Virus record (IMG/VR): IMGVR_UViG_3300021197_001002
DNA: 64,000 nucleotides
Strand: one strand, 5' to 3'
DNA from: an uncultured virus (IMG/VR IMGVR_UViG_3300021197_001002)
Lineage: Duplodnaviria; Heunggongvirae; Uroviricota; Caudoviricetes
Each line of letters begins with the position of its first letter. The first letter of the stretch is position 1. Under the pieces are notes generated by a model. That model did not search any database, was not told the origin of the DNA, and was given only the letters and a program-made list of their open reading frames with translations. This document shows positions 3-29,917 of this stretch, piece after piece. A program made the translations under genes and the position numbers.

Positions 3-1229
3 AAATATAATTCATTAAAGTTAAAATATGATATTAGAAAACTTTTTATTTCATTTGAAAAATTATTATACAATAAATTTAATCAAAGTACACATCAAAA
101 TGTAGACCATCTTAAAAATACAATGACGGCATTTAACAGACATCACGATGATGATGATGTTTTTACAGGTTCGCTATTTGAATATGGTTTGGGTAATGGA
201 TTTGATTATGATATATTCCGCCACTTAGAAAAAGTGAATAAAGAAAGGGCTACAATGAATAAAATGTTCAAGTCTCCACTCGACTACGTAATAGATAATT
301 TAATTGCTAAAGCAAATCTTCCAACTATGCGAGAAAAGGGAATAAAATTTGACGATATACAATCACTTCGTTGGCTTCCTCAAACAAGAAAAGATACATT
401 TTCAAAACCTATTAGTGTTACACGTTCTAAAAAATTAGGTGCTGGACAAGTTCTTCCTTATGAAATAGATACTGTAGCACCAATGCCCGAAGGTATTACT
501 TTACCCGGTTTATTAGATAAAACTAAAAGACATATAAACCCATTAATGGATGTTTCAGGAACATGGGTTTCACCAAGTAATCAAGGTACACTTGCAAATC
601 CGGATTTTACATTTGACCCACATGTTCAAGCAATACTTCTTGGTAATATTAATTCTCCAAATTTCTATAGAAGAGAAAAAGAAGGCGCAAAAATGCCCGG
701 TGGTGAAGGTTTTCAATATGGAGGATTCCCAAAAGATAGTTATTTTAGAGTTCAATTACCACAAAATGCTACACCTATGTCGATAGCGCAAGTAATGCGA
801 GAAAAACTTGCAAGAGAAAACTTGCCACCAGTACTTCAAAACCCTAATTTAAAATTAGATAATGAAACACTTGAATTTGTAAATCAATTTCCAGAACAAC
901 AAGGTATGCGTAGTTGGTATCAAGACGTAGGTAAGCCGTTAGACCTTCAAGGTTTAATTGATTCAAATCAAATAAACCGATTATCTGAATCACAAAAGAT
1001 ACTAAATAGCCCATTTTTACCTGTTCAAACAGGCGAACCAATGGACATCGCTATGCGGTTGTTGAAATACGACAGGGCTACTGAAATGTACGAGTTAGCA
1101 CAAGAGGCTATGGCGTTAGGTTTAGCAGACAATTGGGAGGATGCTATGAAAATAGCAGAAGAAGAAGCGGAATCGCCTTCTGAGTTTAACCCTCAGTTTC
1201 AGCAAAAGAACACAGGCGAACCAATGGAC
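3..1229 (+). CDS. 5'-truncated hypothetical protein (candidate cassette polyprotein) running into an assembly gap
   Basis: The frame of ORF 123 is open from base 3 (KYNSLKLKYD...KNTMTAF), so the start may lie before the window. It has two TGEPMD motifs; the 3' end is lost in the Ns at 1230-1329. Confidence 0.7.
1029..1229 (+). repeat. 18-nt exact direct repeat ACAGGCGAACCAATGGAC (1029-1046 and 1212-1229), in frame, encoding TGEPMD
   Basis: Read directly; spacing is 183 nt (61 codons) and the second copy abuts the N-gap. Confidence 0.95.
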
Positions 1230-1450: not shown

Positions 1451-1924
1451 ATGAAGAGTGATGTTATGACACCAATGCAAAAGGCTTGGCTGTTGTTGAA
1501 GATGCCTGTTTACGATACAGGTATACCCGGAATACAATTCGTTACTCAAGGAAAAAATGAGGATTGGACACAAGATAAAAATCTTCATGGTGGTTTACCC
1601 GGTATTTGGATGAAGGAAGGAAAAACATATGATTCTTCTCAAAGAGAAATACCACATGAAAAAGATTTAGAAGATTGGGCTGAAATAACCAATATGACTC
1701 CAAATCAATTTTTACAAGAAACGAAAACAGATGAAATGGTTGATGACGATTACTACAAAAATCTCATGCAAAGAGCAATGGAAGGTGAAGATATGCGTTT
1801 CGTAATGCCAAGAGCAGATTATGAGTTTACTGACAGCCCTGTGGGACATGATGGGAGGCATCGTATGCGAGCGTTGAGAAATTTAGGGTATGGAGATACA
1901 CCAGTACCAGTTTTTAGACAGTAG
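1451..1924 (+). CDS. ParB/sulfiredoxin-like domain protein with N-terminal AWxLLK tag (start possibly 1466)
   Basis: C-terminal DGRHRMRAL..LG...VPV matches the ParB/Srx signature; N-terminal PMQKAWLLLK. Confidence 0.6.
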   Translation: MKSDVMTPMQKAWLLLKMPVYDTGIPGIQFVTQGKNEDWTQDKNLHGGLPGIWMKEGKTYDSSQREIPHEKDLEDWAEITNMTPNQFLQETKTDEMVDDDYYKNLMQRAMEGEDMRFVMPRADYEFTDSPVGHDGRHRMRALRNLGYGDTPVPVFRQ

Positions 1925-6055: not shown

Positions 6056-6739
6056 ATGGCGGCGGGTGAGCAAGTAATAAAACGGTCTTGCTCATTCTGC
6101 ATGGATGAGGACCGTGAAGAGTTGGAAGAACAACTTTTACAAGGTTACATTTCCCCAAAGCAACTTGACAAAGATAAAGGTTGGAGAACCAATACTACGG
6201 ACCGACATTTTAGAAATCACATGGGTGAATATCACGTTGCGGCTAACGAAACGTGTGCTCTATGTACATCTCCCAATCGTGCTGATTATGAGCGACTGTA
6301 TTTTTCTGATGGTTCACAAATAGATGCTATAGCCGAAGAAGTTGGAATTAGTGAAAACCTCGTTTACCAACATATGAAGCATCATTTCCAACCTTTGGTG
6401 CAGAAAACAGCGGCTCTTGAAATAGCATCCTTTGCCGTTGGTAATGAATTAGATTTACTTCGTACAAATGCGGAAAGATTAAATGGTAAACTAACTGAAC
6501 TTCTTGATGAAGGGACTGTACATGAGGATGGGTTTGTTCGGGATGCTGTTATGCTTCACAAAGAAGTACGAGAAACAGTCAAAGACTTGCTTCGCTTCCA
6601 AGAACAATGGGGTCCTCAAGGTGAAACACAGCAAGTTAATCAAACATTCAATATTTTACAGGTCGAACTTGGAAAAGAAAGCCCTGAAACTTGGGCTAAG
6701 ATAAAGTCTCGATTACAAGAAAACATGGGGGTTGAATAA
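6056..6739 (+). CDS. Tandem Zn-finger/HTH protein, candidate terminase small subunit
   Basis: Two CxxC...HTH...HxxxH units (CSFC..RHFRNH; CALC..QHMKHH), then a coiled coil; lies upstream of TerL; start reassigned to ATG 6056. Confidence 0.5.
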   Translation: MAAGEQVIKRSCSFCMDEDREELEEQLLQGYISPKQLDKDKGWRTNTTDRHFRNHMGEYHVAANETCALCTSPNRADYERLYFSDGSQIDAIAEEVGISENLVYQHMKHHFQPLVQKTAALEIASFAVGNELDLLRTNAERLNGKLTELLDEGTVHEDGFVRDAVMLHKEVRETVKDLLRFQEQWGPQGETQQVNQTFNILQVELGKESPETWAKIKSRLQENMGVE

Positions 6740-8988
6740 TGCCAATGATGGGAAGAGGTTCTGATACACGAATGTATGCACCACGTAGTGAATCAGACAC
6801 TATGTATTCATCTGCTAACGAAGGTGAAACAAAATACAATCCTACATCTCCTCAAGATAAAGACGAGAGGAATGAAAAGAAAAAGTTACGTGCCGAAGAA
6901 AAGAAGGAACGTAGAGACAAGATAAAACATCTCAAAATTCGTGCTTCTCAAGGAATAAAAGGGGAAGAATCTGCTGTAGCAGAAGATGACGGCAACAAAC
7001 AAGACGATGAACGAGAGATGGGACTACAAGGTGGTCCTGCTGGAAGTCGTGGTAATCTTCTCGACCTTGCAACAGGTGCAAAGTCTGGTACAGGTTCAGC
7101 AATGACTGGACCGTTGCCGATTGCAATGAGTGAGCCAATGGATGGTGCTTGGAGTAGTTTGTTGAAAGGTCAAGAGGTAAGTGACTTTATTCAACAACAT
7201 CCAAATATAAAATTTCAAGAACAAACATTATGGGATGATGATATTGCTAATGAAACCGACGATTACGGTACAAGTACTCTTGGTTCAACATCATTTACTG
7301 ACCCTCAATTTGATACCGCCCGTTCAAGAAGAATGAATCCTCAAACTATGGATATACTTCAAAGGTTTGTAGATAGAAGTAAGGCTAAACCTAAGATTAT
7401 TCAACAAGTTCATGGTAATGTAGAAAATCCATATTATGTCCCACCTGATATGGAAAAACCACCATTGAGAACTGCATCTTCTAACCCTCGACTTGAAAAT
7501 CAATATTATTATGATACTGCGGCTGAAAAACAAGGGGATTATGGAGATGAATATTATTCTGATGAGCAATTAAAGGATTTTAATAGGCGATTTAATATTC
7601 AAACAGGTGAGCCAATGGATGGTGCTTGGAGTAGTTTGTTGAAAGCATCCATTGAAGAATTAATTCAAGAACGAGATAGACTTCAAGAATCAGGTCTTAG
7701 TCGAGAAGCAAAACAATTTGACCGTGTAATACAACAAATGATGCGACCTGATAGACAAGAACAACATATTTTAGAAAGTTTAGGTATACCTTCTGCAAAA
7801 TTAATTATGCCTGAACTTGATAATCAATCTTTAAGAGATATTGGACAAGATATGATGCATGAAGGAAAACAAAATCCTGATTACATTGAAATGCAACGTA
7901 GAATGGGTGATTACGACCCTCAAGTACGACAGCAATTTATGAACAATATCAGTAATATGGCACGTCGTATGCCAAAAATTGATGCAAATCGTCAAGAAGC
8001 AGAAGAAAGTCTAAGAAATTTACAAGCGTCTGACCCTACTAAATTCTTTGCAGACCAAGAAATTGCAACAGGTGAACCAATGGTGGATGCTTGGAGTTCA
8101 CTACTCAAGCGTGATACACCGAATAAAATTCAATCACGTCGTCGCCGTGAAAAGCGACAAGAATTTAGACCATCAACTGGTCAATTTAAGCGACCACCCG
8201 GTGGTATGAATCCCGCAGGTTCTACAATGCGAAGATTCCGAGCACGTATGCGTGGTATCAAAGGAAGTAAGAAAACAGGATTGATGAAGCCTCATTTGTC
8301 TGTTGAGATGAGCCACCGTGGTATCGCTACTAAGCAACCTATGTCAAAAGACCCACAAAAGTATCGACAATATATGGGTCAATCGGAGGCTCGTAAAATT
8401 TTAGGAAATGTCCGTTCTTCATTCTCACCTCACGCTCGATACGGTGAGCGTTCAGTTTCAGCAGGACCTACAGGTGCAGGTCGTATTGGTGGGCTATTAG
8501 CGGGTCAATCGGGTCAAATGAATCGCCCATCTCTTCGTCAAATAGGCATCCGACGACCACGAATCCGACGACCACGAAATCCTGTTCAGGCTATGCAAGC
8601 ACCAATGGGTGTTCCAAGTCAACCAATGCAAGCACCTTCAAGCATCAGTTCACTTCCGCAACCTTCTGCACCAATGATGATGAGTGAAGAACGTGCTGAA
8701 AGTGAATTGCTTAAAGGTCGCACTAATTCTTTAACATACCATAAACTCAATCTTCTTCGCCGTTTAATACGAGCACAAGAACGTGCTGAAAAACTTGGTA
8801 AATCAATGCAAGGTACACGTTCAGCAATGGAAAACGGACACATACCAAGTCATCCTGCTGGTGTACACCAACACGAAGATGAAGATGAAAAAAATGATGG
8901 ACCTACACAAAATCTTGAAACAAATTCAAGCCGTTTAGGTCTTGACCCTGCTGGTTACTTAACATCTAAGCGGGGGCATATGGGATGA
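6739..8988 (+). CDS. Low-complexity putative virion/internal protein carrying two repeat-delimited inserted cassettes
   Basis: 749 aa; three (S/TG)EPMx(G/D)AWSSLLK motifs; Arg-rich C-terminal half. Confidence 0.8.
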   Translation: MPMMGRGSDTRMYAPRSESDTMYSSANEGETKYNPTSPQDKDERNEKKKLRAEEKKERRDKIKHLKIRASQGIKGEESAVAEDDGNKQDDEREMGLQGGPAGSRGNLLDLATGAKSGTGSAMTGPLPIAMSEPMDGAWSSLLKGQEVSDFIQQHPNIKFQEQTLWDDDIANETDDYGTSTLGSTSFTDPQFDTARSRRMNPQTMDILQRFVDRSKAKPKIIQQVHGNVENPYYVPPDMEKPPLRTASSNPRLENQYYYDTAAEKQGDYGDEYYSDEQLKDFNRRFNIQTGEPMDGAWSSLLKASIEELIQERDRLQESGLSREAKQFDRVIQQMMRPDRQEQHILESLGIPSAKLIMPELDNQSLRDIGQDMMHEGKQNPDYIEMQRRMGDYDPQVRQQFMNNISNMARRMPKIDANRQEAEESLRNLQASDPTKFFADQEIATGEPMVDAWSSLLKRDTPNKIQSRRRREKRQEFRPSTGQFKRPPGGMNPAGSTMRRFRARMRGIKGSKKTGLMKPHLSVEMSHRGIATKQPMSKDPQKYRQYMGQSEARKILGNVRSSFSPHARYGERSVSAGPTGAGRIGGLLAGQSGQMNRPSLRQIGIRRPRIRRPRNPVQAMQAPMGVPSQPMQAPSSISSLPQPSAPMMMSEERAESELLKGRTNSLTYHKLNLLRRLIRAQERAEKLGKSMQGTRSAMENGHIPSHPAGVHQHEDEDEKNDGPTQNLETNSSRLGLDPAGYLTSKRGHMG
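7130..8109 (+). repeat. In-frame direct repeats: exact 39-nt GTGAGCCAATGGATGGTGCTTGGAGTAGTTTGTTGAAAG at 7130-7168 and 7607-7645; diverged third copy at 8068-8109
   Basis: Read directly; spacings are 477 and 465 nt, both multiples of 3. Confidence 0.95.
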
Positions 8989-11177
8989 TACGGATTCAAC
9001 CTCCACGTTTGCTCAAAGCATGGAGTATGATTGCTCATCCACCAGAAGGTCCTGTAGCGTTTCGCAACCCCCCTCCACACACTTTTCGCCCTGCACAAGA
9101 ACCCGATATTCCTGCATTTGCACACAATGGTCGTGGAGACATTGTACCCGGTGAGTTTGATTCAAGTCAAGGACCATTGGCTTACAAAACAGAACATGGA
9201 AATTTCTATCATGGTATAGATTCATTGGCTGTTTCTCTTGCTAATTTTTTTAAGATGCATGGAAAAGATGTAGACCCTATTGCGGTTATCAATAAAGCAA
9301 TTGAAAATTTTAATAATTCTCATTCTCATGGACAACATCACGAATTGCCACCATTTGACAATATGGCATGGAGAAAAATTCGTGCAAATACTTTACCTCA
9401 AGGTACTACTGCAAAAGATGCAGAAGGGAATGAGCAGACAAATAGGCAAAGTCGTACACATAATCGAACACTCATTACTGCATTAACAAATAAAAATGCT
9501 GACCAAACTCCTTTTGGTCGATTCATAGAATCATATTACATTCCATTTAATCAAAACTTATTCCATATTTTACAAGACATGGGATTTGAGGACAGACAAA
9601 TAAAAGGCTCACTAAAATCAGGAGTTACCTATCCTTATGTCTATTCTAATCACACAGCACCCGAAGGTTGGGTATACTCAAACAAGGGCGAACATCCTGA
9701 AACATATACAAGTGATATGATGGGACGTGCAAAACCCGGCTATTTCCCTGACCAAGAATCTGTACACACATGGTCTACGGTACATCATCTTCCTGATGTT
9801 TTCTTTTATCCATCTCAAAAGAATGAAAATAAAGACATCATGAGTGGTGGAGGCGCACCAACAAAACTTGTAGCGGCGGCTCACGCCATGATTGACCAAG
9901 CGATAGAACAAGGGGGAATGGAATCTATTCCTGATGTTCCTGTTACGCTTAACACGGGAACTCTTGGCGCACCCAATATGATTCAACGACCACTTCATGA
10001 AATTCTTAGTAACAAAGACCTCAAGGAAGCACTCGTCAAAGACATGGCTCACGTTCCTGCTATGATGTATTTGTTTGGCCGCAGTTATCAAGGTAATTTC
10101 AAAAAGTTATACAACCACATGATGGATAAATACGGTGGTGGAGAAGAAGCACTTTCTGTAGAAGAACACGGTAAGTACCTTACTGGTGGAGAAAAAGGTG
10201 GTCAAGGGTTGCATAAAAATGCGGCTCGACTACTTGCATTGGCTCGTGCATCAGGAGAAGGAAGTGAAGAAGGTCGAAGTAAAATGGGAGAACATGGTGT
10301 TTCTGCTGATGAACTGGAAGCCGCAAATTTACCATATAGTGAACAACGACTCGGACAAGTTGATAGATTCCGTAACGTTATCGAAGCATTAGCAAATCAC
10401 CAAGCAGAAGCAAGAGGGCATCCTGTACAAATGGGATTGGGAGATATACCTTCATCCCCTATGCCTTCACAAATGATTCACGGTTATCCACAACAGGATG
10501 AAACAGGAGAATACCCTGAACCTATTTTGGATGACCATATGCAAGCATATCTTCACAGCATAGAAGATTTTGCACCTAACGGCCAACAAATGAGTGAAGG
10601 CCAACCATCATTGTCTCAACCGAAGGAAACAGCGCAGACCTTACCTCCTGCGGCTACTCATGTTCCTGTTCGTTCAACACCTTCGGTTGAGACACCCCCT
10701 GTAGAGGCTGAACGACCAGTTGTATCACCGAGATTCCAAGATGTACGACATCAAATATCTGACTTTTCACCATCACAGTTTCGTGAAATGTTGCAGATTG
10801 CAGGGGCATCACGCCCACAACCAATCACCGATGCACCATTGAGCGAGTTGGAAGCAAGGTCACAGCAAGCCTTATCAGACCCACGCCAACGTCTGCTAAC
10901 TGATTACATGAAGTCCGAGGACGCACACCTGCCACTTATGGATAAACTCATGAAGGCTCTTGAGCGTATGCAGTACCACGAAGCGCAGATGGATAGCGAC
11001 GTTGTACCTCATCTGACAAACACATTAAATTCACCATTAAACTTAGCAAAGTATGTTGGTCTTACCAGTAGCGAAGTTAATGCAATAAACCACACAATGG
11101 GCGATTGGTATGATATTGCAAAATCATACAATGTAGAACCTAAAGTTGTAAAAGTAATTAAAATGAATTTGAGATGA
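8985..11177 (+). CDS. Hypothetical protein (730 aa), probable head-associated protein
   Basis: Long ORF with ATGA coupling; begins ...RLLKAW; no recognisable enzyme motif. Confidence 0.8.
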   Translation: MIRIQPPRLLKAWSMIAHPPEGPVAFRNPPPHTFRPAQEPDIPAFAHNGRGDIVPGEFDSSQGPLAYKTEHGNFYHGIDSLAVSLANFFKMHGKDVDPIAVINKAIENFNNSHSHGQHHELPPFDNMAWRKIRANTLPQGTTAKDAEGNEQTNRQSRTHNRTLITALTNKNADQTPFGRFIESYYIPFNQNLFHILQDMGFEDRQIKGSLKSGVTYPYVYSNHTAPEGWVYSNKGEHPETYTSDMMGRAKPGYFPDQESVHTWSTVHHLPDVFFYPSQKNENKDIMSGGGAPTKLVAAAHAMIDQAIEQGGMESIPDVPVTLNTGTLGAPNMIQRPLHEILSNKDLKEALVKDMAHVPAMMYLFGRSYQGNFKKLYNHMMDKYGGGEEALSVEEHGKYLTGGEKGGQGLHKNAARLLALARASGEGSEEGRSKMGEHGVSADELEAANLPYSEQRLGQVDRFRNVIEALANHQAEARGHPVQMGLGDIPSSPMPSQMIHGYPQQDETGEYPEPILDDHMQAYLHSIEDFAPNGQQMSEGQPSLSQPKETAQTLPPAATHVPVRSTPSVETPPVEAERPVVSPRFQDVRHQISDFSPSQFREMLQIAGASRPQPITDAPLSELEARSQQALSDPRQRLLTDYMKSEDAHLPLMDKLMKALERMQYHEAQMDSDVVPHLTNTLNSPLNLAKYVGLTSSEVNAINHTMGDWYDIAKSYNVEPKVVKVIKMNLR

Positions 11178-11181
11178 TACT

Positions 11182-12096
11182 ATGAGCAAGCCAGTTTTAG
11201 TAATTAAAAAATCAGGAGGATTACAAACCCTTCAAACAGTAGGTGCTGGTGCAAGACCTTCTATTATGGATTTAGGGAGAACTGCATTTGGTGCAGGAAG
11301 TGGAAAATTATCTCGTGCGGGTGCGCTTCTTGGTTTAGGATTAAAAGGGGCGGCGGCGACTGGTGCGGTGGTTAATACAGCAAAGCGAATGCAAAGTGGC
11401 GATTTTACTGCACCATTACAAGCAGGACAAGCATATGAAAGTCTTGACCCAACATCATTTCTTTCTGGAACTACTCAAGCAGGATTGGAGAATCAACAAA
11501 AATTTCAAAGTCAACAAAACCGCAATAATATGCCTCAAAGTACTCATGCTGAAAGAATGGGAGGGTATACAGCAGGTTCTAAACCCAATCAAGTAGGAGT
11601 AAGAGCAAAGGGTCCTGCTAATGTAAGAGTACCACTTCCCCATGAACCAAAAAAGGCAAGACCTTCGTTTATGCCTCCTTTACCTTTACCTACACCTCCA
11701 CAAAATAATCCTTTTAATCCTCAACAACCACTCGATACATCTATTTTTAATCAACCTATAGCACCTATACCACCAATGTCGCAACAACCTGTACAGCAAC
11801 CTGTACAGCAACCTGTACAGCAACCTGTACAGCAACCTGTACAGCAACCTGTACAGCAAACCGGTGAACTTTTACGTAATAGACTTCATACCGACGGACA
11901 AAATAAAGGTATAGAAGGGGCAACACCAACTCAAGTAGGTCAACTTTATAGAAACGAATTAAATCCTAATAATCCTCATGTTGTTAAATCGTACATCAAG
12001 AAACTCTATGACGAGTTTGGTGGGTATTTGTACAAAATGACCCCTCATGAAGCGGGTCAATTCGCAGTTTATACAATGTTTACACTAAGGAAGTGA
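11182..12096 (+). CDS. Low-complexity G/A- and Q/P-rich hypothetical protein
   Basis: 304-aa ORF containing a QQPV tandem array. Confidence 0.75.
   Translation: MSKPVLVIKKSGGLQTLQTVGAGARPSIMDLGRTAFGAGSGKLSRAGALLGLGLKGAAATGAVVNTAKRMQSGDFTAPLQAGQAYESLDPTSFLSGTTQAGLENQQKFQSQQNRNNMPQSTHAERMGGYTAGSKPNQVGVRAKGPANVRVPLPHEPKKARPSFMPPLPLPTPPQNNPFNPQQPLDTSIFNQPIAPIPPMSQQPVQQPVQQPVQQPVQQPVQQPVQQTGELLRNRLHTDGQNKGIEGATPTQVGQLYRNELNPNNPHVVKSYIKKLYDEFGGYLYKMTPHEAGQFAVYTMFTLRK
11785..11856 (+). repeat. Tandem repeat (CAACCTGTACAG) x6, coding QPVQ
   Basis: Six perfect 12-nt copies read directly. Confidence 0.95.
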
Positions 12097-12112: not shown

Positions 12113-13594
12113 ATGGAGGGCGACATCAATGAATTTATCCACGATATGGATAAACAGATGTCTGCAAAGTCTTTTCGATACTTCTTTGAGGACATATTAG
12201 GATTTGATTATTCGCACCACCATGAAAGTTGGGACAAAGGGTTAGCAGAAAACAAATATTACTGCGTCAAAGCGAGTCGTGACCACGGTAAGTCTGTTTT
12301 CTTTATGTCCTATGCTTTATGGATAGCGGCATTTAAGCCCGGTACACACGTCATGATTTTCTCTCACTCTTTGGAACAGACATTGGAACACATGAGATTT
12401 ATTCGTAATAACATCGAATCCACACCAATCCTTCGTGAACTTATTCCAGAAGGAAGGCCGTGGAGAAAAACCTACTTTGAGTTTGAAAACGGAAGCCGAA
12501 TGATGGCTAAGTCCGTTGGTGGTGGTACTCGTGGTTTCCACCCTCACGTTGTAGTATGCGACGATATTCTATGGGGTACAACAGGTACAGAATTACAGCG
12601 AGCCGCTGATTGGTTCTATGGTGTTCTCCTTCCTGTTCTGCACCACACAGGTCGTATGATGATTGTCGGTACGCCGTTTTCATACAACGATTTGTACGCT
12701 GAATTAGAACAAAGAGATGCCTTTACTGTCGAGACATATCCTGCAATAGATGCCGCTGGAGAAGCCCTTTGGCCTGAACGATGGAATCTTGAATCACTTG
12801 ACCAACGTAGACTTTCAATGCCAGCGATACAATTTTCTCGTGAATATCTGTGTGAGCCGATTCACGACGTTGCGAGTATGTTTCCTAACGATATTCTCGA
12901 CAAAGCCCGTGATAAAGACCTTGTATTGCTCGACAGGGCTGATACTGAATTTGATGAAAACGGTAATCCCGCAGGTGTATTCGGTCAACACTTCATAGGA
13001 TGGGACACAGCAATTGCTTCGGATAAGAACGCTGACTACACAGCAATGGTTGTTATGCGTACTTTACCTGATGACCATACCAAACAAATTGTCGGAGTTG
13101 TGCATGAGAAAGGATTAGGCGGTGCGGCTCAAAAGAAACATATTTTGATGCTTAACAATCGGTTTCAACCTGATTTGATTGAACTTGAAGGCAACAACTT
13201 TCAGCGTATGTTCGCCGCTGAACTGCAAGATATGCGTAGCGATATACCGATTAAAACGTTCATGACCACTCGACAAAGAAAGGAAAGTATGTTCATGTCT
13301 TTACTTATGGCATTTGAACAAGGACAGATTAGAACACCGTATGGTGATGAACGAAGTCGTACTTTCACACATAAATTAGAACAAGAACTAAACCGATTTG
13401 GAATGCAAAAGAATGGTAAGTTGGAATCTGTAGGTACTCACGATGACTTGGCAATGGCTTTGGCTTTGGCTAATTGGGGTACAAAAGAGTTCAAGGGAAG
13501 CATTGTTTCACTCGATGATTACATGCCCGGATTTGGTGATTGGCTTGACAATACTGTTGGTGGTAAGAACACAGGTGGGTGGGTTATACCATGA
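12113..13594 (+). CDS. terL: Terminase large subunit
   Basis: Walker A ASRDHGKS, Walker B VVVCDD, motif III VGTP, RNase H-fold nuclease IGWDTA...LEGN...HDDLAMALALA. Confidence 0.95.
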   Translation: MEGDINEFIHDMDKQMSAKSFRYFFEDILGFDYSHHHESWDKGLAENKYYCVKASRDHGKSVFFMSYALWIAAFKPGTHVMIFSHSLEQTLEHMRFIRNNIESTPILRELIPEGRPWRKTYFEFENGSRMMAKSVGGGTRGFHPHVVVCDDILWGTTGTELQRAADWFYGVLLPVLHHTGRMMIVGTPFSYNDLYAELEQRDAFTVETYPAIDAAGEALWPERWNLESLDQRRLSMPAIQFSREYLCEPIHDVASMFPNDILDKARDKDLVLLDRADTEFDENGNPAGVFGQHFIGWDTAIASDKNADYTAMVVMRTLPDDHTKQIVGVVHEKGLGGAAQKKHILMLNNRFQPDLIELEGNNFQRMFAAELQDMRSDIPIKTFMTTRQRKESMFMSLLMAFEQGQIRTPYGDERSRTFTHKLEQELNRFGMQKNGKLESVGTHDDLAMALALANWGTKEFKGSIVSLDDYMPGFGDWLDNTVGGKNTGGWVIP

Positions 13595-14529
13595 GTTACT
13601 CGTTTGATATTTGTTGGTCTTTCTTGAAAAGTTATCGTGCTCGCAAACTTGGTTTAATGCAAGATGGTCGGAAAGAGCAACTCAATACACAAAGGACGAT
13701 GGGTAACTTAAACGACCCCAACGCCGAGCCTAAAGATAAGTCTCCCAAACTTGCTGATGATGCTGATGCTAATGTTACTGTCGCCTCGTTAAGAAATCTT
13801 CGTGCAAAACATGGCGACCCATACGCTGGTATGACTCAAGAACAGGCTGATGAATACAATCGTTTGCTTGCGGAAAATAGACAGTTTGAAGAAGCGAGTC
13901 AACCTGAACCTGAACCAGTTTTAGATGATGTTGACCCTTACGCACAAATTTTTGAAGATATGAAAAGAAAGGCTTTCTTGAAAGGTGAATTAATTCATCC
14001 AAGTGCTATGGGATATTTTGCCCGTAGTCGTTTGTTAGGTGAGGATGATGAAGGTAGAATGGGAACTTCATATAAAATTGATGACCTTGCTGACCCACCA
14101 ATGGACATAGAATATAATCGACCAACACCCTATCCTTCTAAAGTACCAAATAAAAAATATCCTGAATTTTCAAGAACTGATGCAAATAATCGAGCATCTA
14201 AACTCACCGCCGCAGAAAATCAAGGACATGAAAACTGGGCTAATTTTACATTAAATCAAAGAGATAAAAGACACGATGATATGATGCAAATACCTCAAGA
14301 AGATGTTGATGCATTTATTGAGCGTCTTTCAAATCCTGAAATGCATCAAAGTGAATTTTTTGATAAACCACACATGAGTGGTAAAGATGAAAGACGACAT
14401 GATGCTATGGATAAGGTACTTGTAAAACGTCCAAGTGCATATCCTCCATATATGAGATATGCAAATGAAGATGGTACTCAACGTTCCATAGAATTACCAC
14501 AAGATTATTACCAAGAGGTAAGAGGATGA
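13591..14529 (+). CDS. Acidic hypothetical protein with N-terminal FDICWSFLK tag
   Basis: ATGA overlap with the terL stop places the start at 13591. Confidence 0.75.
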   Translation: MSYSFDICWSFLKSYRARKLGLMQDGRKEQLNTQRTMGNLNDPNAEPKDKSPKLADDADANVTVASLRNLRAKHGDPYAGMTQEQADEYNRLLAENRQFEEASQPEPEPVLDDVDPYAQIFEDMKRKAFLKGELIHPSAMGYFARSRLLGEDDEGRMGTSYKIDDLADPPMDIEYNRPTPYPSKVPNKKYPEFSRTDANNRASKLTAAENQGHENWANFTLNQRDKRHDDMMQIPQEDVDAFIERLSNPEMHQSEFFDKPHMSGKDERRHDAMDKVLVKRPSAYPPYMRYANEDGTQRSIELPQDYYQEVRG

Positions 14530-15434: not shown

Positions 15435-15459
15435 ATGATTGGTCAACGGAGAGGTCAAT

Positions 15460-16761
15460 ATGTGGGGGAGTGCATTTGTCGGGGATGAGTATGATTTCCC
15501 CGTTTTAGGAAACGATGAGTTTTCTAATTTACTTGTTAAAAGTATATCACAGCATCCACAATTTCAATATGATAATTTACCTATTGAACCAGTAAGTTCA
15601 TCTTTAGTTGTTAAAGAGGAATTAAAATCATATTCATTTGCTAAGAATGGAGATGGTTGGCTCGAATCCACATGGGGAAAGAGTGCTGACCAAATTATAC
15701 GTGAATGTCGTAAAGCCCGTAGAAATGATAAAACCAATAGAGACATGTACGATTCTATGATTAAAGACGTTAGAACATTAAAGTCGATGGAAGTGGAAGC
15801 CACTATTACCAATTTGTCTTGGTCTGATGGTCTTTCTGATGTTATCAAAAATATGGGTATAAACGATAAAGCGTTAAAATCACTACGAAAGTTTGGAGAA
15901 TCACGTTCTGTTAGTTTACAAAAAGCCTGTCAATTATTTTTGAAAGCAAATACTGTATTGAATATGCTCAATGAGAAAATTGACTGGTCTGTTGATGACC
16001 AATTAGAATGGGTCAATGCAAATCAATTACAAAAAGACGCAAGAAAAATGTGGAGAAATGTATTGAAGCAAGCAGAAAAATTACCTGTTAATGATGTAAA
16101 GGCATTAGAATTTGCATCTGATGTATTGGAAAAGGAAGGTCCTTTACAATCTCGTGAACTCGTAAGACGTGGACTCGGTACATTGGAAAAGAATATCACA
16201 CCACAAAAAATGGCATCTTTACTCAAGACGTATGGCGAAGAGTTTGATATTTACAAAGCCCCGTCGAGAGGGAATTACATTAAAATTGGTACGCATGGGT
16301 TAATTATCAAAGACATATGGGGGTACATGGCGGGTTCACTTGATTCGGATGGAAGCATCTTTATTTCCCAACGTGGCGACCCTCGTGTAACCTTTGTTGC
16401 AAGTGGAAATATGGGTAAGCAGTTGTGTGAAGATTTACAAAAGGCTGTTGGCTGTGGTCGATTAGTTACTGACCAAACAGTAGCAAAGAATACACAAAAA
16501 ACAATTCATCGGCTCATATTTGCATCAAAAGACGATATTCGCCATGTACTCAAACATTCTATGCCTCATATGCGTCTAAAAGACTTGCAAGCAAAGGCTA
16601 TGCTTGCTTATGTAGATGAAAAAGATAAGATGAGAAAGACTGAATTATATCAGTTAGTTACATTTAGTAATTGGAAAGACCATAAAAACAAAGCCGACTC
16701 TCTCTTGAACAAGTGGGGCGTTGATGCTGACACTATAGGCGCATTTGCGGAGGGATTGTAA
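15460..16761 (+). CDS. Protein with C-terminal LAGLIDADG endonuclease-like domain
   Basis: WGYMAGSLDSDGSIFI motif followed by the typical beta-strands and L...MPHMRLK; long helical/wHTH-like N-terminal region; GAGG RBS before ATG 15460. Confidence 0.8.
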   Translation: MWGSAFVGDEYDFPVLGNDEFSNLLVKSISQHPQFQYDNLPIEPVSSSLVVKEELKSYSFAKNGDGWLESTWGKSADQIIRECRKARRNDKTNRDMYDSMIKDVRTLKSMEVEATITNLSWSDGLSDVIKNMGINDKALKSLRKFGESRSVSLQKACQLFLKANTVLNMLNEKIDWSVDDQLEWVNANQLQKDARKMWRNVLKQAEKLPVNDVKALEFASDVLEKEGPLQSRELVRRGLGTLEKNITPQKMASLLKTYGEEFDIYKAPSRGNYIKIGTHGLIIKDIWGYMAGSLDSDGSIFISQRGDPRVTFVASGNMGKQLCEDLQKAVGCGRLVTDQTVAKNTQKTIHRLIFASKDDIRHVLKHSMPHMRLKDLQAKAMLAYVDEKDKMRKTELYQLVTFSNWKDHKNKADSLLNKWGVDADTIGAFAEGL

Positions 16762-18551
16762 TCGCAGAAGAAAATGGAAGAATATCACGATTTTTGTCGG
16801 CTTTAGGTCGGCCTTTCAAAAGAAAGGAAAGCCCAACTCCTACTATGCCACTTTGGTCAAGTGGTATTCAAGAACCCGTAATGGCTCAAGGAATTACGAT
16901 ACCTGCTCTTTTTGCTGTAAGTAATGAATCGCTTATTCTTCGTACTGTACTTTCTAAACTACGACAAGAAATGTTTCGTCGTGGTTTTTATTGGGAAAAG
17001 CAATTTACCAGAAAATGTACTCAATGTGATGAAGAATATCAAGAAGAAGTTGATACTTGTAAACTATGTGATGGTCAAACAAGAAAACCTGACCCTGATG
17101 AACTCACTTATCCAAAGTGGTTACTAAAACAAGAAAACAGCATGGAACAATCATTCTTCCATCTTTTACATGAACTTGAAAGCGATTTAAATATTGTAGA
17201 TGACGGGTTCCTTGTTTTAGTAAAAGAATATTTTATTGACCCTGAAACAAAAGAAGTTCAATTTTATCGTGTTAAAGAAATGATACGAGGCGACCCCATC
17301 TTTATGCGTATTGTTGCTGATAAGCGTGGTGTTCGTGGTGGGCGTTACAAAATTTGTTTAATTCATCGAGAAAATGTCAAAACACATTCTGAAAGCGATA
17401 AATGTGAAATTTGTGGAAGTGAAATGCAAGATGTTCATTATGTAAATATGGCTGGAAGTGGTAAGACACAATACTTTGTTGAAGGGGAAGTACTGCACAT
17501 TTCAAAATATAATCCATCGAAATTGTATGGTCGTTCTCCAGTTAACACAATGTGGAGACAAGCAATGACACTCACAGCAATGGATAACTACATCTATACT
17601 GCATATCAAAAGAGAAGAATACCAAAAGGTATTATTTCTGTTACAACAGATAACTTAGAATCAATGAAGTCGTTCTGGAAGGCAACTGATGAAAAGATGG
17701 AACGTGACCCTCACTATATTCCTCGTGTTGGTATCGAATCTTCGAGTGGAAGAGGAGGGGTCAATTGGGTCAAATTTATGGACACACTTGAAGAAATGCA
17801 ATACATCGCTGTGCGTGATGAAATACGAAACCGTATCGCCGCTTTCTATGGTGTCTCCTCTATCTTCATGATTGATAATGGTAAATCAGGAGGTCTGAAT
17901 AATGAAGGACTACAGATTCTTGTTACTAATCGTGCTGTAGAATTTGGTCAAAAAGTATACACAGAAATTCTCTTCCCAAGACTACTAAAGCAAATGAATG
18001 TTAATGATTGGAAACTCACGCTCTATCCTAATGAAGAAGAAGATGAAATTACTCGACTTCGTAGAGATGAACAAGAACTCAACGTTGCACAAAGAATGGC
18101 GCAATTAGGATTTGTACCTGATTTGCTTGATGAGCCAGCAAATCGAGATATTCGTTTCACATATTCTAAACCACCACCAGCACCAGCACCACCACCCGGT
18201 GGAGGACCACCACCCGGTGGAGGAGGAATGCCTCCTATGATGCCACCCGGTGGAATGCCACCCGGTGGAATGCCACCACAGATGATGGGAAGAGGCGGAA
18301 TGCCAATGCCACCTCAAATGGGTGGAGGAATGCCAGCATCAAGACAAGTTCCTCCCGGTATGGGAATGCCTATGCAACCCGGAAGTGAAGGAATGGGAAT
18401 GAGAAATCGTGGTCCTGTAGCACCTCAAAGAAGAGGAACAATGGGAAGCGGTTCACCACTTTCAAGTGTTCAACAAAGAGGACCTGAACCAACTCCTATG
18501 CAAAACGTTTCTAATGCATTATTAGACGCTCGTAGACCAAGAGGCCGCTAA
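16761..18551 (+). CDS. Portal protein (possible non-canonical ATC start at 16761; track start 16794)
   Basis: Portal-like motifs EVLHI..YNP..LYGRSPV, IPKGII, IAAFYGV; lies between TerL and protease; Zn-ribbon insertions; P/G/M-rich tail. Confidence 0.88.
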   Translation: MAEENGRISRFLSALGRPFKRKESPTPTMPLWSSGIQEPVMAQGITIPALFAVSNESLILRTVLSKLRQEMFRRGFYWEKQFTRKCTQCDEEYQEEVDTCKLCDGQTRKPDPDELTYPKWLLKQENSMEQSFFHLLHELESDLNIVDDGFLVLVKEYFIDPETKEVQFYRVKEMIRGDPIFMRIVADKRGVRGGRYKICLIHRENVKTHSESDKCEICGSEMQDVHYVNMAGSGKTQYFVEGEVLHISKYNPSKLYGRSPVNTMWRQAMTLTAMDNYIYTAYQKRRIPKGIISVTTDNLESMKSFWKATDEKMERDPHYIPRVGIESSSGRGGVNWVKFMDTLEEMQYIAVRDEIRNRIAAFYGVSSIFMIDNGKSGGLNNEGLQILVTNRAVEFGQKVYTEILFPRLLKQMNVNDWKLTLYPNEEEDEITRLRRDEQELNVAQRMAQLGFVPDLLDEPANRDIRFTYSKPPPAPAPPPGGGPPPGGGGMPPMMPPGGMPPGGMPPQMMGRGGMPMPPQMGGGMPASRQVPPGMGMPMQPGSEGMGMRNRGPVAPQRRGTMGSGSPLSSVQQRGPEPTPMQNVSNALLDARRPRGR

Positions 18552-19737: not shown

Positions 19738-19911
19738 ATGTCTAATGTGCGTGTAGTTAAAGCGAATGACCACGCATCATTGAGAGAGCATAGTGAACGT
19801 GTTGCACCTCTATTGTGTCGAACTTGTGGCGGTTCATCTGAATCAGGATGTAAACTCCCTATGGCGCAAGGAATGGATATACACGCCTGTCCTAAATTTA
19901 CACCGCTATGA
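19738..19911 (+). CDS. Small Zn-binding hypothetical protein
   Basis: CRTCGG...C...HACP; coupled to the next gene. Confidence 0.6.
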   Translation: MSNVRVVKANDHASLREHSERVAPLLCRTCGGSSESGCKLPMAQGMDIHACPKFTPL

Positions 19912-22900
19912 AAGGCGGTGTTAAAATGTCATATACTCAATTAGACCACGCTACATACGATTTGTTAAAATCGTTAGACGATGGTTTAGACCTTGAACGA
20001 AATGCGGCTGAATACATCATCGCATGGAACTCTATGGAAAAATCCCCCCGTGAACCCATTCTTGGTTCTCTTCTTGTATTAGCAGAAGATGTTATTGCGA
20101 AGAAAGAAAAAGAAGAATTGCCTGAATTTGAATATGACAAGGGCGACGATACTGGTGAAGGGCTTCTGCACAATATAGAAGATACTCAAGATGATTTAAC
20201 AAATCACATATGGCTCGATGGGTTACAAGGCGGAAAGAATCTATCTGACCATTTTTCTACATGGCCTGTGTATCGACCCAATCCAGCAAATCACCCATAT
20301 AGAGAACATCATTTTCCATTCCATCCAGCAAATCACCCTGCACTAAGACTTCATGCTACAACAGGAAAACCTCATTGGGTTGAAATGCTAAGAGCACACG
20401 TTTTTGGCGGATATATGGATGAAGAAGCAAAGATGGAAAAAGAATACATAAAGCATCTTAAGGATAATAAACACCCTTTAGCGTTTGGATTTAAACCTCA
20501 AGGTTCAAAGTCAAAGAGTATGAATTTATTAGGCACTCCAGAAGTATTTGGTACGATTGGTACACACCAGAAAGATTTCTACGAACGAGATTACCATAGA
20601 TGGAAAAAATCAAATGAAGCATCTAACATGAAGGACAGTCTTGTGGAAGAAGGAAGAAGTTCTCAAGACATACAAAAAATACTTCGTGAGGCACATTTTG
20701 ACCAAAGAGCAAATGAGTGGCTTACAGAAGATAGTGTTTTAGATGATGATTACAATGTCCATCCAACACCGTTAGGTCATCATGGTTTTAAATTAGGTTT
20801 AGAATGGTTTTCACCAGAAGAAAGAACTGCCATACGACAACAGATAGATGAACACGGTTTAGACAATGTGAGCACTATTGAATTACCAAGTGGGCAAAAA
20901 ATTCCTTCTTCTCGTTTTACATACAATGCTCTTATGCGTAAAACTCCTGAAATGAATTGGGCTGTACGTAGTCCGAGAATGATGGGAAGAAATTCTCATC
21001 TTCGATTAGAAGATAACGATACTGATTACGAATTAGGTGAAGGTGGTCGATTCCTACAAAGTGCGTTAGGAAATGCTGTACACTTACCATATGAAGGAAA
21101 AGAAGAGTCTATCGCTGATTTTATTTTGGAAGAAATAAACAATCTGTATGCAGATGATATGAAAGATGCTGGTAAAGGGTATAAAAGAAAGTTGAAGTAT
21201 TTACCAAGACTAAATTTACACAAAAACGATTCTCCAGAAGATTTGACTTGGGAAGGTCTAAAAGATGCTGAAAAAAGTCAATTTGGAAAACGAACTCAAA
21301 AAATAGACCATTCAAGAATACCAATTGAAGATATACTTTACTTGGCTGGATTTGACCCTAAAACAAGAGAACCTATTCAAAATCATGAATTGCATGGGTC
21401 AATGGAAGGACCCATTGTTCCTTTAGAATGGATTGAGAATATGGAAGAACAGGCTTCGGGGCATATGAATTTACAACAACAAGAGAAAGATATTCGTAAT
21501 CATTTATCATTCTTAAAAGCGGCACATGGTCCTCATCCATCGGAAGATAAACCCCCGTATTGGCGTACAAGTGAAGATGGGGATTATACTTACGGACCCG
21601 GAAACTTTTGGAATAAATTGTATCAGGGTGCTGGTGGTGCAGGTATGTCTTTATCTACATACAATGAAATTCTACATGCATTAACTGCTAACGAAGATGG
21701 TAATTCTTTACTTGGTGAAGTACATGAATCAGGTACTATGGGGGAAAAGAAAACGATAGTACCTAATCAAAACAATTTATCACTTGCCGCACATTTTATG
21801 CCTGAACGTTCTCAAGAACATGGGCATTTTGATGCAAACACGAAAAAATATGTTCACCATAATGCACCTAAACTTATTCAAAACATACTTTCACCTGTAA
21901 ATGTTTCAAGACCAATACCAAGTGGAACATCACATAGTGGATTTAAAGAAGGGGCTACGACTAAAAATAATTTTTCTGAACATAAATCATCTCTTTCACC
22001 ACAGTATGAGTATATGATACGCCATATGACAGATAAAGAGAGACAAATATTTGGTTCACATCTAAAACCGTTTGACAATACATTAACAAGAAATCCGTTC
22101 TTACATCACGCTACTTATCGTGGTTATGTACCATACAGTAGTGATAAACAAATATATGATAACGCCGCAGATACTCACAAAAGAATAATGAGATTTGGTT
22201 ACCAAAACCATTTGAATACACCAAGTGAAAAGTCTGTTACATCGTTTAATGATTTACTAAGAGGTGAAGGAGAAGTTAGCGGAGGAGAAACACCAGAAGA
22301 TATGTTTTCTTTTTTGAATTGGGGAGTATCAAAACCTTCATACAATAAAGTAAAGGATTATTTGAACACAAGTAAACGAGCATTTGGACTTCGTTTACTT
22401 ACGAACATAACAAAGGTTATTGGTTCTCAAAAACCAAGAGACATTTTAGAATATTTACAAGCAGAAGATTTTACAGATTTACGTGAAAAAATGGGCTTCG
22501 ATGCTGTACATGATACAACTCCTATAGGAGATATTGTTGGAGGATTATTAGATGATATTCATCTTGATATTAAAGAACGACCTCAAACATACAAGCATAA
22601 AAAACCAACAATGGAAGATGCAGTTCGTACAGCAATAAGTTTTGGTGGTGCATTACCTGCTATTGATAAAGAGCAAAAATTACAAGATGAATCTGATGAT
22701 TTACTTCAACAACTCAATGAAGCAGACGAAATAGATAAACCGCTGGTAAGAGAAAAACTAACAGATGTAACTTCAAAACTTACCGCAATGCAACAAAAAG
22801 CAATAGAAGGTGTACAAGGAAAGGGAACAACTCATTGGAAAATAGATTCCAAGAGAGAAGAAGAGTTGGCAAAAGCGCACAGAATTTTAGTTGCTAAAGT

Positions 22901-27104: not shown

Positions 27105-28208
27105 ATGGCAAGAGATTACATACGAAGCATTACTGACATGGAACGCTACTACTACGGTGCTGGCAACGCAATGGGTTACTCCTACTCCGGTAGCGAGTTG
27201 CTCAAGGCTGACGCACCTATGCTTTCCACAACAGCGGGAACATACCAAGCGATTTATGGTCGCAAAGTTTGGTCCCAACTAAACCAAGAATTTAACGCAT
27301 TCTCAATTCTACCAAAGCGTCCGTGGGAACGAAGTGGATGGCGAGTCATCACAGAACGTCCTTCCTTTACTGTTGGCGGCGGTGTTGCAGAGAACGCAAC
27401 ACTTCCTGACACAACCAAGCCGACCTTCCAGCACATTGCGGCCAAGCCTAAGACTGTGGTTCACACATTCGACATGAGCGAAACCGCAATGTTCCTTGCT
27501 GACAAGGACGATGGACTTGGCGACATCCGTTCTATCCTAAAGGAAGAAATGGGTAAGCACCACGCAGAGCACATCAACAAGATGATGACCGCAGACAAGG
27601 CTACACTCGCAGGTAACGACTTTGAATCACTTGACCGTATTACGGTTGGTTCAAACGAAACTGGAACTGACATTGACATGTACAGCATTGACCGAAGTGC
27701 AAACTCTTGGTCTTACTCAGAAGTCAATCAAAACGGTGGAACAGACCGTGTTCTGTCCCTTGACCATCTTGATGACCTCTTCCAGAAGTGCTGGACTCGT
27801 GGTGGTAACCCGAAGGTTATCCTTACAGGATATGACACACTTATGCGTCTACAACAACTTCTACAATCCCAACAACGTTTCCTTGAAGAGAAGCGTGTCA
27901 CCCCAACCTACAACGGTGTAAAGGGTGTACCGGGTATTGAAGCAGGTTTCATTGTTGCAACATACAACGGTGTTCCAATCATTCCATCAAAAGATGTACA
28001 AACCGATACTCTAAGTCGTATGTACTTCCTTGATACTGATTACCTGTACTTTAGCACAGCAATTCCAACGCAATACTTTGAGAGTGGTATCGAAACTGGT
28101 GACCCATTCGCTATTAACCGTCTTGGACAAGAGGGTATGTACCGAACTATGGGAGAACTATGGACTACTTTCTACGGAGGTCACGGTTCAGTCCGAGACT
28201 TGAAGTGA
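27105..28208 (+). CDS. Major capsid protein (HK97 fold)
   Basis: 367 aa after the protease; GVAENATLPDT, ATYNGVPIIPS, MYFLDTD motifs; codon bias typical of a highly expressed gene. Confidence 0.92.
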   Translation: MARDYIRSITDMERYYYGAGNAMGYSYSGSELLKADAPMLSTTAGTYQAIYGRKVWSQLNQEFNAFSILPKRPWERSGWRVITERPSFTVGGGVAENATLPDTTKPTFQHIAAKPKTVVHTFDMSETAMFLADKDDGLGDIRSILKEEMGKHHAEHINKMMTADKATLAGNDFESLDRITVGSNETGTDIDMYSIDRSANSWSYSEVNQNGGTDRVLSLDHLDDLFQKCWTRGGNPKVILTGYDTLMRLQQLLQSQQRFLEEKRVTPTYNGVKGVPGIEAGFIVATYNGVPIIPSKDVQTDTLSRMYFLDTDYLYFSTAIPTQYFESGIETGDPFAINRLGQEGMYRTMGELWTTFYGGHGSVRDLK

Positions 28209-29913: not shown

Positions 29914-29917
29914 TTTA

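Follow-up and report, generated by a model that had tools for sequence, protein, structure and literature searches.

Within 64,000 nucleotides of DNA from an uncultured tailed virus (IMG/VR record IMGVR_UViG_3300021197_001002; this whole stretch is called the window below), we analysed a late gene in which a short repeated peptide bounds exchangeable protein segments. The gene (positions 6739-8988, plus strand), identified by an open reading frame (ORF) call, lies in the block upstream of the terminase gene and encodes a conserved magrovirus late protein, which has 749 amino acids in the window and is here called the carrier. It contains three copies of a 13-residue motif, [S/G]EPMxxAWSSLLK, here termed the tag, and the two segments enclosed by these copies are referred to as cassettes. 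Comparison with related viruses shows that cassettes are gained, lost and exchanged exactly at the tag, even between carriers with almost identical backbones, and the gene is thus a cassette hot spot. The repeat described in an initial annotation of this DNA is real, and the cassette reading is established by comparison; that the tag also acts as a protein signal is plausible from the sequences, if unproven.

Cassettes are gained, lost and exchanged at the tag

The carrier begins with an N-terminal backbone of 130 residues (6739-7128, on the plus strand like all its parts), which has the conserved start MxxGRGSDTRMYxPRSES and invariant columns in an alignment of 29 sequences. Read in frame, it is followed by tag 1 (SEPMDGAWSSLLK, 7129-7167), cassette 1 (146 amino acids, 7168-7605; acidic and aromatic, mostly predicted to be disordered), tag 2 (GEPMDGAWSSLLK, 7606-7644), cassette 2 (142 amino acids, 7645-8070; predicted to be an all-helical domain) and tag 3 (GEPMVDAWSSLLK, 8071-8109). 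The C-terminal backbone (292 amino acids, 8110-8985) is basic, rich in proline, glycine and arginine and largely disordered, and contains the invariant blocks RPSTGQF and SHRGxAxKQPMSKDPQKY. It also holds a further conserved SELLK (8701-8715), kept as S[DE]xLK in orthologues and followed by a confidently predicted helix.

As the initial annotation had described, a repeat search found a single 39-nucleotide family with three copies, two of which are identical (7130-7168 and 7607-7645, 100%), while the third (8072-8110) has diverged to 67% identity. The spacings are 477 and 465 nucleotides, corresponding to 159 and 155 amino acids. A degenerate DNA pattern for PMxxAWSxLLK matched three times in the window and in none of 100 dinucleotide shuffles. 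The claim that the enclosed segments are more AT-rich than their surroundings was confirmed as well, with a GC content of 0.34 and 0.35 in the cassettes versus 0.43 and 0.45 in the flanks, and a GC content at third codon positions of 0.158 and 0.155 versus 0.262 and 0.236.

Two identical copies of 39 nucleotides, together with the tendency of metagenome contigs to break at tags, could point to a simple tandem duplication or to faulty assembly at a repeat. Against this, the two cassettes have no detectable relation to each other (best BLASTP E 0.26), just as had been claimed for them. In addition, an independent IMG/VR record (L001/L133) shows this architecture too, as do protein clusters P0002 and P0011, which come from several sources, and a contig from a run of another study (X13 record 6, 6900-7632) spans tag 1 to tag 2. 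We regard this explanation as refuted.

A scan of IMG/VR with carrier peptides from outside the tag yielded 42 related loci. The tag is present in 42 of the 43 sequences made up by these loci and the window, the exception (L042) being a 5'-truncated fragment of 215 amino acids, and every full-length sequence contains n cassettes with n+1 tags. Cassette-free forms of 426-435 amino acids exist in nature and read through ...EPMxDAWSxLLKRxT... (L033, L019, L012, L029 and L030, with 426-429 amino acids). They correspond to the seamless protein, ...EPMxDAWSxLLKR(D/E)T..., that the initial annotation had expected if both segments were deleted.

The closest relatives of the window differ in whole cassettes. 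One locus (L002) has a backbone that is 96-99% identical to that of the window and is without cassette 1, another (L003) combines a near-identical backbone with a single unrelated cassette, and a third (L022) unites the cassette of L034 with that of L023. At the DNA level the window, L002 and L003 are almost base-for-base equal until tag 1 ends. The identity restarts at the beginning of the last tag, with ACAGGTGAACCAATGG in tag 3. Between the first and the last tag the DNA of L003 cannot be aligned, and the window equals L002 plus 477 nucleotides. Since near-identical backbones differ in their cassettes and DNA homology breaks at the tags, gain, loss and exchange can be placed at this motif. 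Among these relatives, cassette turnover is fast relative to point divergence.

The tag pattern alone, searched across the whole collection, gave 119 stretches. The tag loci that were fetched hold 114 frames with a strict tag, 63 of which were flagged as orthologues by strict backbone signatures. Sixteen frames were inspected, and all except those of a second gene type (L055 type, see below) were divergent or truncated orthologues, including 10 of the 11 that the signatures had left unflagged. Seven of the tag-pattern loci carry this other tagged gene, and three matches (L142, L145 and L154) look like chance. Altogether, 54 distinct full-length orthologues were obtained from the loci, with no, one or two cassettes in 17, 29 and 8 cases, respectively.

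A search of a collection of 5.8 billion proteins with the C-terminal backbone returned 382 clusters at E<=0.001. Among the 120 of these 382 clusters that were listed, lengths range from 413 to 932 amino acids, and the representatives have zero, one, two, three, four or five tags in 1, 28, 60, 27, 3 and 1 cases. Relatives hold between zero and four cassettes. Variable cassettes in any number at exactly this junction had been predicted for the orthologues, and loci and protein clusters alike bear this out: the two segments of the window are not common to all orthologues, and cassette content varies. Clustering at E<=1e-5 with at least 50% coverage sorted 172 cassettes (138 distinct) into at least 41 families, 19 of them singletons, and 45 architectures. 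It replaced an earlier clustering at E<=1e-3, which had joined some cassettes via a common ...FNxxTxFT stretch preceding the tag. Even C-terminal backbones that are 96-100% identical to that of the window come with the architectures [2], [4,1], [23,1], [18,1], [1] and [4,24]. The family of cassette 2 has 27 members.

The order of the cassettes is not random. The family of cassette 1 (11 members) always opens the array; the final place, beside the C-terminal backbone, is usually taken by families 1, 2 and 3.

Sequencing runs were examined as contigs. Contigs of four runs end at tags and continue into other sequence past tag 1, and one loose contig end translates to QDPNHEHDVG, which resembles another cassette family. 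In run X8 the cassette 1 contig has a word depth of 21.9 versus 98.3 and 95.5 for the flanks, which is only a hint of coexisting variants, as contig depth cannot rank parts of a gene. A joint from 7645 to 8137 was seen in one contig with a side of 21 letters and is too weak for use. Contigs from an RNA library (X15) cover the carrier gene in part, which is not proof of transcription. Removal of cassettes at the RNA level could be ruled out, since L002 is a DNA variant without cassette 1 and the RNA contig without this cassette carries the single-nucleotide polymorphism of that variant. Protein splicing was ruled out too, because the junctions offer neither a Cys, Ser or Thr nucleophile nor His-Asn.

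The tag as a peptide and its place on other late proteins

In its extended form the tag comprises 13-16 residues and is amphipathic, with the pattern hydrophobic-x-[T/M/A]-[S/G]-E-P-M-x-x-A-W-S-x-L-L-K. Its third codon positions vary among 117 distinct instances (0.9-1.9 bits at most codons), and in these instances Ser is encoded by both TCN and AGY and Leu by both CTN and TTR. Because synonymous sites vary, it is the peptide that is conserved, and the comparison of instances shows selection to act on the amino acid sequence of the tag and not on its DNA. Adjacent tags within a gene share 26-38 of 39 nucleotides (background: mean 28, 95th percentile 33), and values of 37-38 were found only in the window, L057, L058 and L059. 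The 39-nucleotide identity of tags 1 and 2 is probably the scar of a recent recombination inside the tag and not something that the system requires.

These data bear on the possibility that the motif is a mere recombination joint or a neutral linker without any role of the peptide. Such a joint would account for the homology breakpoints, which coincide with tags, and for the near-identical DNA of several adjacent tags. It would not account for the free variation of synonymous sites and even codon classes in a peptide that has been retained by lineages with 35% identity in the backbone. The same is seen inside the window, where copy 3 is only 67% identical in DNA to copies 1 and 2, yet has 11 of 13 residues as in copy 2. 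Furthermore, there is nothing to be joined by tags that lie at the very start or end of other proteins. We therefore disfavour this explanation and consider it very improbable.

Such other proteins are found in the window itself, where one short peptide is common to several unrelated proteins, namely the carrier and the products of ORFs 3-1352, 1451-1924, 13579-14529, 29894-30631 and 56635-56973. The first ORF of the window, 3-1352, contains the tag variant GEPMDIAMRLLK (1032-1067, plus strand), which scores 8.2 bits with a hidden Markov model (HMM) of the tag, the maximum for reversed sequences being 1.5 bits. A second GEPMD begins at 1215, and what lies between the two matches a cassette in the carrier orthologue of L117 with 58% identity (E 4e-21). 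This ORF thus has a tag-bounded cassette of its own, with a run of N just past the start of the second tag; since the run interrupts the ORF, its C-terminal part is unreadable. The next tagged ORF, 1451-1924, starts with the N-terminal leader MKSDVMTPMQKAWLLLK (1451-1501, plus strand). In L005 a module homologous to that of ORF 1451 begins after ...PTIVK within a longer frame.

An N-terminal leader, ...MSYSFDICWSFLK (13579-13629, plus strand), also begins ORF 13579-14529, the gene after that of the T4-type large terminase (TerL; 12113-13594, identified by Pfam/PHROG scans). In the window this ORF consists of the tag, a module A, ...RKAFLK and a module B, and in L001 (6470-7075), the carrier gene of which is 99% identical, the tag is followed directly by module B. 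The gene after TerL is a second cassette slot of the same genome, in which the window differs from L001 by a module of about 116 amino acids.

At the other end of a protein, the tag FRDAWSVLK (30599-30625, plus strand) closes ORF 29894-30631 and is followed by one residue (S) and the stop codon. Homologues of this ORF have additional modules after the C-terminal tag, a Cys-rich one of 46 amino acids in L165 and L166 and module A of ORF 13579 in L167. The protein, which belongs to the head-tail region, contains an internal tandem repeat, ...RDTRSADSYKTGDTMTPQ..., twice. Finally, a small basic protein (ORF 56635-56973) has the N-terminal leader ...TPMENAFALMK (56635-56697, plus strand), with an HMM score of 4.8 bits that is near noise.

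Some modules move between different tagged genes, that is, between the carrier, the upstream gene, the gene after TerL and the homologue of ORF 29894. The family of cassette 2 is also present in the gene after TerL of L036, L037 and L041 (33-35% identity over 140 amino acids), and two more carrier cassette families are found in the upstream gene of L003 and L034, where they are flanked by that gene's tag variant. In a complete relative of 107 kb (G005), tag matches above the control all lie on the structural strand, and five further proteins begin with ...A[W/F/Y]x[L/I]LK. About five N-terminal tag leaders are present in this genome and three in the window. The tag is also used in another magrovirus lineage: in L055 (931-1818) and six sister loci, a gene directly after TerL has an N-terminal part of about 190 amino acids joined by the tag SEPMPHAWSELLK to a phrog_7595 domain (E 3e-39).

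The tag as a candidate signal for loading and cutting

The tag is best read as a position-independent signal, since it serves at the start, in the middle and at the end of unrelated late proteins and modules begin after it in any context. We lean towards a reading in which it is both an address helix and a cut site of the virus's own S78 prohead protease, the chain being loaded and cut and its pieces travelling with the DNA. The address helix would end in the cut site, hydrophobic-hydrophobic-Lys, with cleavage after Lys. The whole carrier chain would enter the procapsid and would there be cut into the N-terminal piece, the cassettes and the C-terminal piece, and these pieces would accompany the DNA, either as internal proteins or as ejected ones. 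Where a tag stands only at the start of a protein, it would be removed as a propeptide. Exchange of cassettes probably proceeds by homologous recombination between co-infecting relatives, within the approximately 33-45 nucleotides of tag-coding DNA.

The ending of the tag recurs near the start of other proteins. Hydrophobic-hydrophobic-Lys was found within the first 35 amino acids of 16 of the 49 ORFs of the window, versus 54 of 519 internal windows of 35 amino acids (binomial p 2e-5). Control patterns were not enriched in the first 35 amino acids (K-hydrophobic-hydrophobic 3/49, hydrophobic-hydrophobic-R 5/49 and hydrophobic-hydrophobic-E 2/49). In G005, 14 of the 51 structural-strand ORFs have the motif near the N-terminus (p 9e-5), compared with 6 of 51 from the opposite strand (p 0.8). 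Pro never follows the tag Lys in 234 contexts, compared with 8% of residues being Pro, although these contexts are not independent.

The same ending is present in the two proteins in which maturation is expected. The major capsid protein (27105-28208, plus strand) is of the SU10/HK97 type (phrog_24667, E 6.5e-62; PF17236) and contains SELLK at amino acids 30-34 (27192-27206), with the motif itself at 32-34, ahead of the conserved HK97-type body. Here ELLK/ADA aligns with GMSK/ADN of HVTV-1, the point at which the N-terminal extension of about 100 residues of the HVTV-1 protein ends. The S78 prohead protease (25712-27085, plus strand; PF04586, E 1.3e-9, 38.8 bits with a cut-off of 21; PHROG head maturation protease) is fused to a long scaffold-like tail and has the motif three times, at amino acids 13-15 in the N-terminal part, at 166-168 where the catalytic domain ends before a variable linker, and at 399-401 near the C-terminus. 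Residues L13, K15, I166, L167, K168 and K401 are invariant in 30 sequences. Hydrophobic-hydrophobic-Lys thus sits at plausible maturation points of both proteins. In HK97, the S78 protease cuts the capsid protein gp5 after Lys103. A complex prediction for protease residues 16-165 and carrier residues 436-480 gave a score of 0.00 in a run without controls, which counts neither for nor against binding.

A number of points weigh against the reading of the tag as address and cut site. That M, W, L and K never vary in the tag follows in part from the search pattern; the 42 IMG/VR orthologues were found without this pattern. The enrichment tests were designed post hoc, when the pattern had already been seen, and the direct contrast between the strands of G005 is weak (Fisher p 0.08). 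One of the 16 matches in the window, the N-terminal LMK of ORF 19236, was ruled out as a site because it equals the start MKPR in relatives. In the protein of 1921 amino acids that is encoded between portal and protease (19908-25673), 6 of 23 N-terminal variants have LLL, FLL or FML in place of LLK, and Lys is therefore dispensable at this N-terminus. Two antisense frames reach 3.9-4.5 bits with the tag HMM, and the tags of ORF 56635 (4.8 bits) and ORF 29894 (3.3 bits) therefore rest on position and orthologues and not on their score. AlphaFold2 (AF2) models tags 2 and 3 as helical, but the predicted local distance difference test score (pLDDT) is below 50 there. Among 77 relatives scanned, only one proved to have a Pfam domain above the cut-off in a cassette. 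Moreover, the tag that ends ORF 29894 and the single tag of cassette-free forms are not explained by cutting alone. Lastly, we infer the functional steps beyond comparative genomics. The initial annotation had taken the motif for a protein signal that directs the chain to the procapsid and is cut at LLK. That the motif is a protein signal is indirectly supported by its use as an N-terminal leader, an internal joint or a C-terminal end on other late proteins, by the enrichment of its ending near N-termini and by the presence of this ending at plausible maturation points of capsid protein and protease.

Because terminal and lone tags argue for binding besides cutting, address and cut site are combined in the reading that we favour. 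The same tags would be expected if the tag were a docking helix that is never cut and binds one common partner, such as the capsid interior, the scaffold, the portal, the viral chaperonin or a host protein, with the modules staying linked like beads on a string. This is the main rival. A docking helix could function N-terminally, internally and C-terminally, as the tag does, and the positions of M, A, W, L and L at i, i+3, i+4, i+7 and i+8 have the spacing of an amphipathic helix. The low-confidence helix that AF2 places at the tag and the dispensable N-terminal Lys of the 1921-amino-acid protein in some lineages also fit it. However, it leaves unexplained why the terminal Lys of the tag is constant, why modules start exactly after this Lys, in leaders as well as in chains, and why hydrophobic-hydrophobic-Lys is found at the expected maturation points of capsid protein and protease. 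We consider a docking helix rather unlikely.

It might also be that the tag is a processing or sorting signal read by something else, for instance by a host protease or in the course of export or secretion, and is unrelated to the capsid. Leaders of 12-21 residues with a fixed last residue do resemble cleaved leader peptides in general. But in both the window and G005 the tagged genes are confined to the late or structural block, close to the genes for terminase, portal, protease and capsid, and the leaders inspected in these two genomes are not followed by a hydrophobic membrane-spanning stretch. In addition, capsid protein and prohead protease themselves have the same ending. A purpose outside the capsid is a distinctly less probable explanation than the docking helix.

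A wider form of the address and cut site reading can be put forward tentatively. The tag might be part of a genome-wide addressing code, in which any segment with an ...AWSxLLK helix would be loaded, cut after Lys and delivered with the DNA, and in which the tag DNA would serve as a universal splice point. Dozens of in-frame cassettes, likely for host takeover or counter-defence (for example NUDIX), would then be shuffled between viruses and between carrier genes. If this were true, it would amount to a market of accessory genes at the level of protein segments and not of genes.

The device most resembles T4 capsid targeting and the processing by gp21 or in giant phages, combined with the motif-bounded exchange of CdiA/Rhs proteins, and it is a member of none of these systems. 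The T4 capsid targeting sequence of IPI-III and Alt, which is removed by gp21, is likewise a short peptide common to unrelated proteins of one virus; it directs them into the procapsid and ends in the cutting motif of the head protease, as may also be the case for the tag. In T4 this sequence is N-terminal only and ends with L/I-x-E. The tag, in contrast, is also found between modules and at C-termini, ends with hydrophobic-hydrophobic-Lys and marks points of module exchange, and the protease of the window is an HK97-type Peptidase_S78 (PF04586) and not a member of the gp21 family, which places the device outside the T4 system. In the giant phages SPN3US (gp245) and phiKZ, many head proteins have a protease motif, the propeptides have 20-254 residues and some proteins are cut at several sites, according to the available part of PMC10052503. 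The pieces removed there are propeptides of fixed genes, and interchangeable motif-bounded cassettes are not described in that part of the paper (PMC10052503).

Exchange at a peptide motif is known from polymorphic toxins of bacteria. CdiA-CT is marked off by VENN and Rhs-CT by PxxxxDPxGL, and near-identical carriers have their modules swapped at the motif, as given in the accessible text of PMC3150448; the CdiA-CT region is freed by proteolytic cleavage according to that of PMC9424206. This is similar to the carrier, where the variable region is sharply bounded by a conserved peptide motif and exchanged between close relatives. In the CdiA and Rhs systems, however, there is only one toxin, located at the C-terminus, with its cognate immunity gene and with orphan cassettes further downstream. 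The carrier has up to four internal cassettes in series, belongs to an archaeal virus and shares its tag with proteins on which the tag is a leader. A Pfam scan of 77 relatives revealed no toxin family, and no immunity genes were found.

Polyvalent proteins also combine several unrelated modules in one polypeptide. They are found in portal-terminase viruses, are predicted to be packaged into the capsid and are sometimes subject to proteolysis (PMC5512222, as far as the available text goes). They are defined by recognisable effector domains, two to fifteen in number, and often have a metallopeptidase of their own (same part of PMC5512222). The carrier differs from them, since 74 of the 77 relatives are without any Pfam domain, a single repeated tag forms the joints and cutting would fall to the protease of head maturation.

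The initial annotation had likened the gene to an in-frame integron. Integrons use the integrase IntI and folded attC DNA sites and move whole promoterless genes. An array at a fixed site, units bounded by a repeated element and a content that varies between close relatives are indeed common to both. Unlike in integrons, it is in-frame protein segments that are exchanged here, and the repeat is kept as a peptide with free synonymous change; no integrase family was found among the 21 large ORFs scanned and no attC-type DNA site was seen. The integron is thus a loose analogy, which holds for gain and loss at a fixed motif and fails for the machinery. Encapsulin cargo-loading peptides are short, often C-terminal and sufficient to load unrelated cargo into an HK97-fold shell; they are not cut and are not exchange points, and the likeness is one of functional analogy only. 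The device is not described in the magrovirus literature PMC5434244, PMC11706807 and PMC10160649, as far as the available text of these papers without their supplements goes, which agrees with the earlier statement that a repeat-delimited version had not been recognised as described.

Most magrovirus genes have no known function, and the tag provides a testable rule for which of their orphan proteins are likely virion cargo. The rule also covers the starts of mature proteins and the fast diversification of cargo, as near-identical genomes differ by whole modules. Should the tag on its own suffice to load and release a protein, it would be the first signal of capsid addressing to be known from an archaeal virus, and it would give a compact handle for packing foreign proteins into HK97-type shells. 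In-frame exchange of segments at a functional peptide motif would then be a route of viral innovation distinct from mosaicism at the gene level.

Content of the cassettes and of the window

Structure prediction for the cassettes, which the initial annotation had proposed as a check, gave different results for the two. For the whole carrier, AF2 with an alignment of 29 rows reached a mean pLDDT of 48.6 and was confident only for a helix at residues 38-61 (pLDDT about 87), a helix at 656-693 (pLDDT 70-90) and parts of cassette 2. Cassette 1 had a pLDDT mostly below 50, in an alignment that contained no homologue for it. Cassette 2 alone, with 8 rows, was predicted confidently as a six-helix bundle (mean pLDDT 90.0, predicted template modelling score 0.77). 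A Foldseek search with this model gave no match at E<=0.001 in PDB (best 0.42) or BFVD (best 0.2).

Comparison of the carrier, its backbone halves and six cassettes with Pfam and PHROG yielded nothing at E<=0.01. The carrier protein had no tblastn match in the phage collection, and a search of the ESM Atlas with the cassette-free orthologue L033 returned nothing of use. The Pfam scan of carrier relatives, which covered 77 of the 120 listed, revealed one NUDIX domain, two sub-threshold DnaJ_CXXCXGXG (zinc-finger) matches and no domain in the remaining 74. The NUDIX hydrolase is the second cassette of relative P0033 (PF00293, E 3.6e-19) and has an extra AWWLLK before it and EPITKAWSDLLK after it. 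CxxC pairs are present in several short cassettes. From the Pfam results, the repertoire of cassettes consists mostly of orphan sequences and includes at least one enzyme. The gene 3' of the carrier gene (8985-11177) is conserved in all relatives.

The window derives from a magrovirus-like tailed archaeal virus, as judged from its head module and chaperonin gene, which match the described features of the group. According to the available part of PMC5434244, group A magroviruses have a halovirus-like head module and a thermosome gene, and magroviruses are abundant and globally widespread in the surface ocean. A halovirus-like set of capsid protein, portal, protease and terminase together with a chaperonin was found in the window, in agreement with a tailed virus of Poseidoniales of the group A type as published there (PMC5434244, same part). 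The chaperonin is of group II (thermosome type) and is encoded on the minus strand (61490-63022; Cpn60_TCP1, E 1.6e-121). The only named relatives of the capsid protein are tailed archaeal viruses, with HVTV-1 and HCTV-1/5 at 33-36% identity (36% for the HVTV-1 capsid protein) and methanogen-assigned viruses; a sequence search of PDB with the capsid protein gave no match. The Pfam/PHROG scan of the window covered 21 large ORFs, all of 150 amino acids or more. It identified the portal (16794-18551), which has an N-terminal CxxC...CxxC insert and a long tail rich in Pro, Gly and Met.

Several further genes were noted. The 1921-amino-acid ORF has a sub-threshold match to an ATP-dependent DNA ligase (PF01068, E 4.9e-5, 23.5 bits with a cut-off of 26.2), and its location is that of a head-internal or polyvalent-type protein. 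Between terminase and portal, ORF 15439-16761 has a weak match to an HNH endonuclease (phrog_5046, E 1.4e-4). Six QQPV units are arranged in tandem in ORF 11182-12096. In the tail region an ORF of 5898 amino acids (38942-56638) is among the largest that can be expected for a virus of about 100 kb. A tail-fibre-like protein (58717-61095) has a C1q-type domain at its C-terminus, just below the Pfam cut-off (PF00386, 23.3 versus 23.7 bits).

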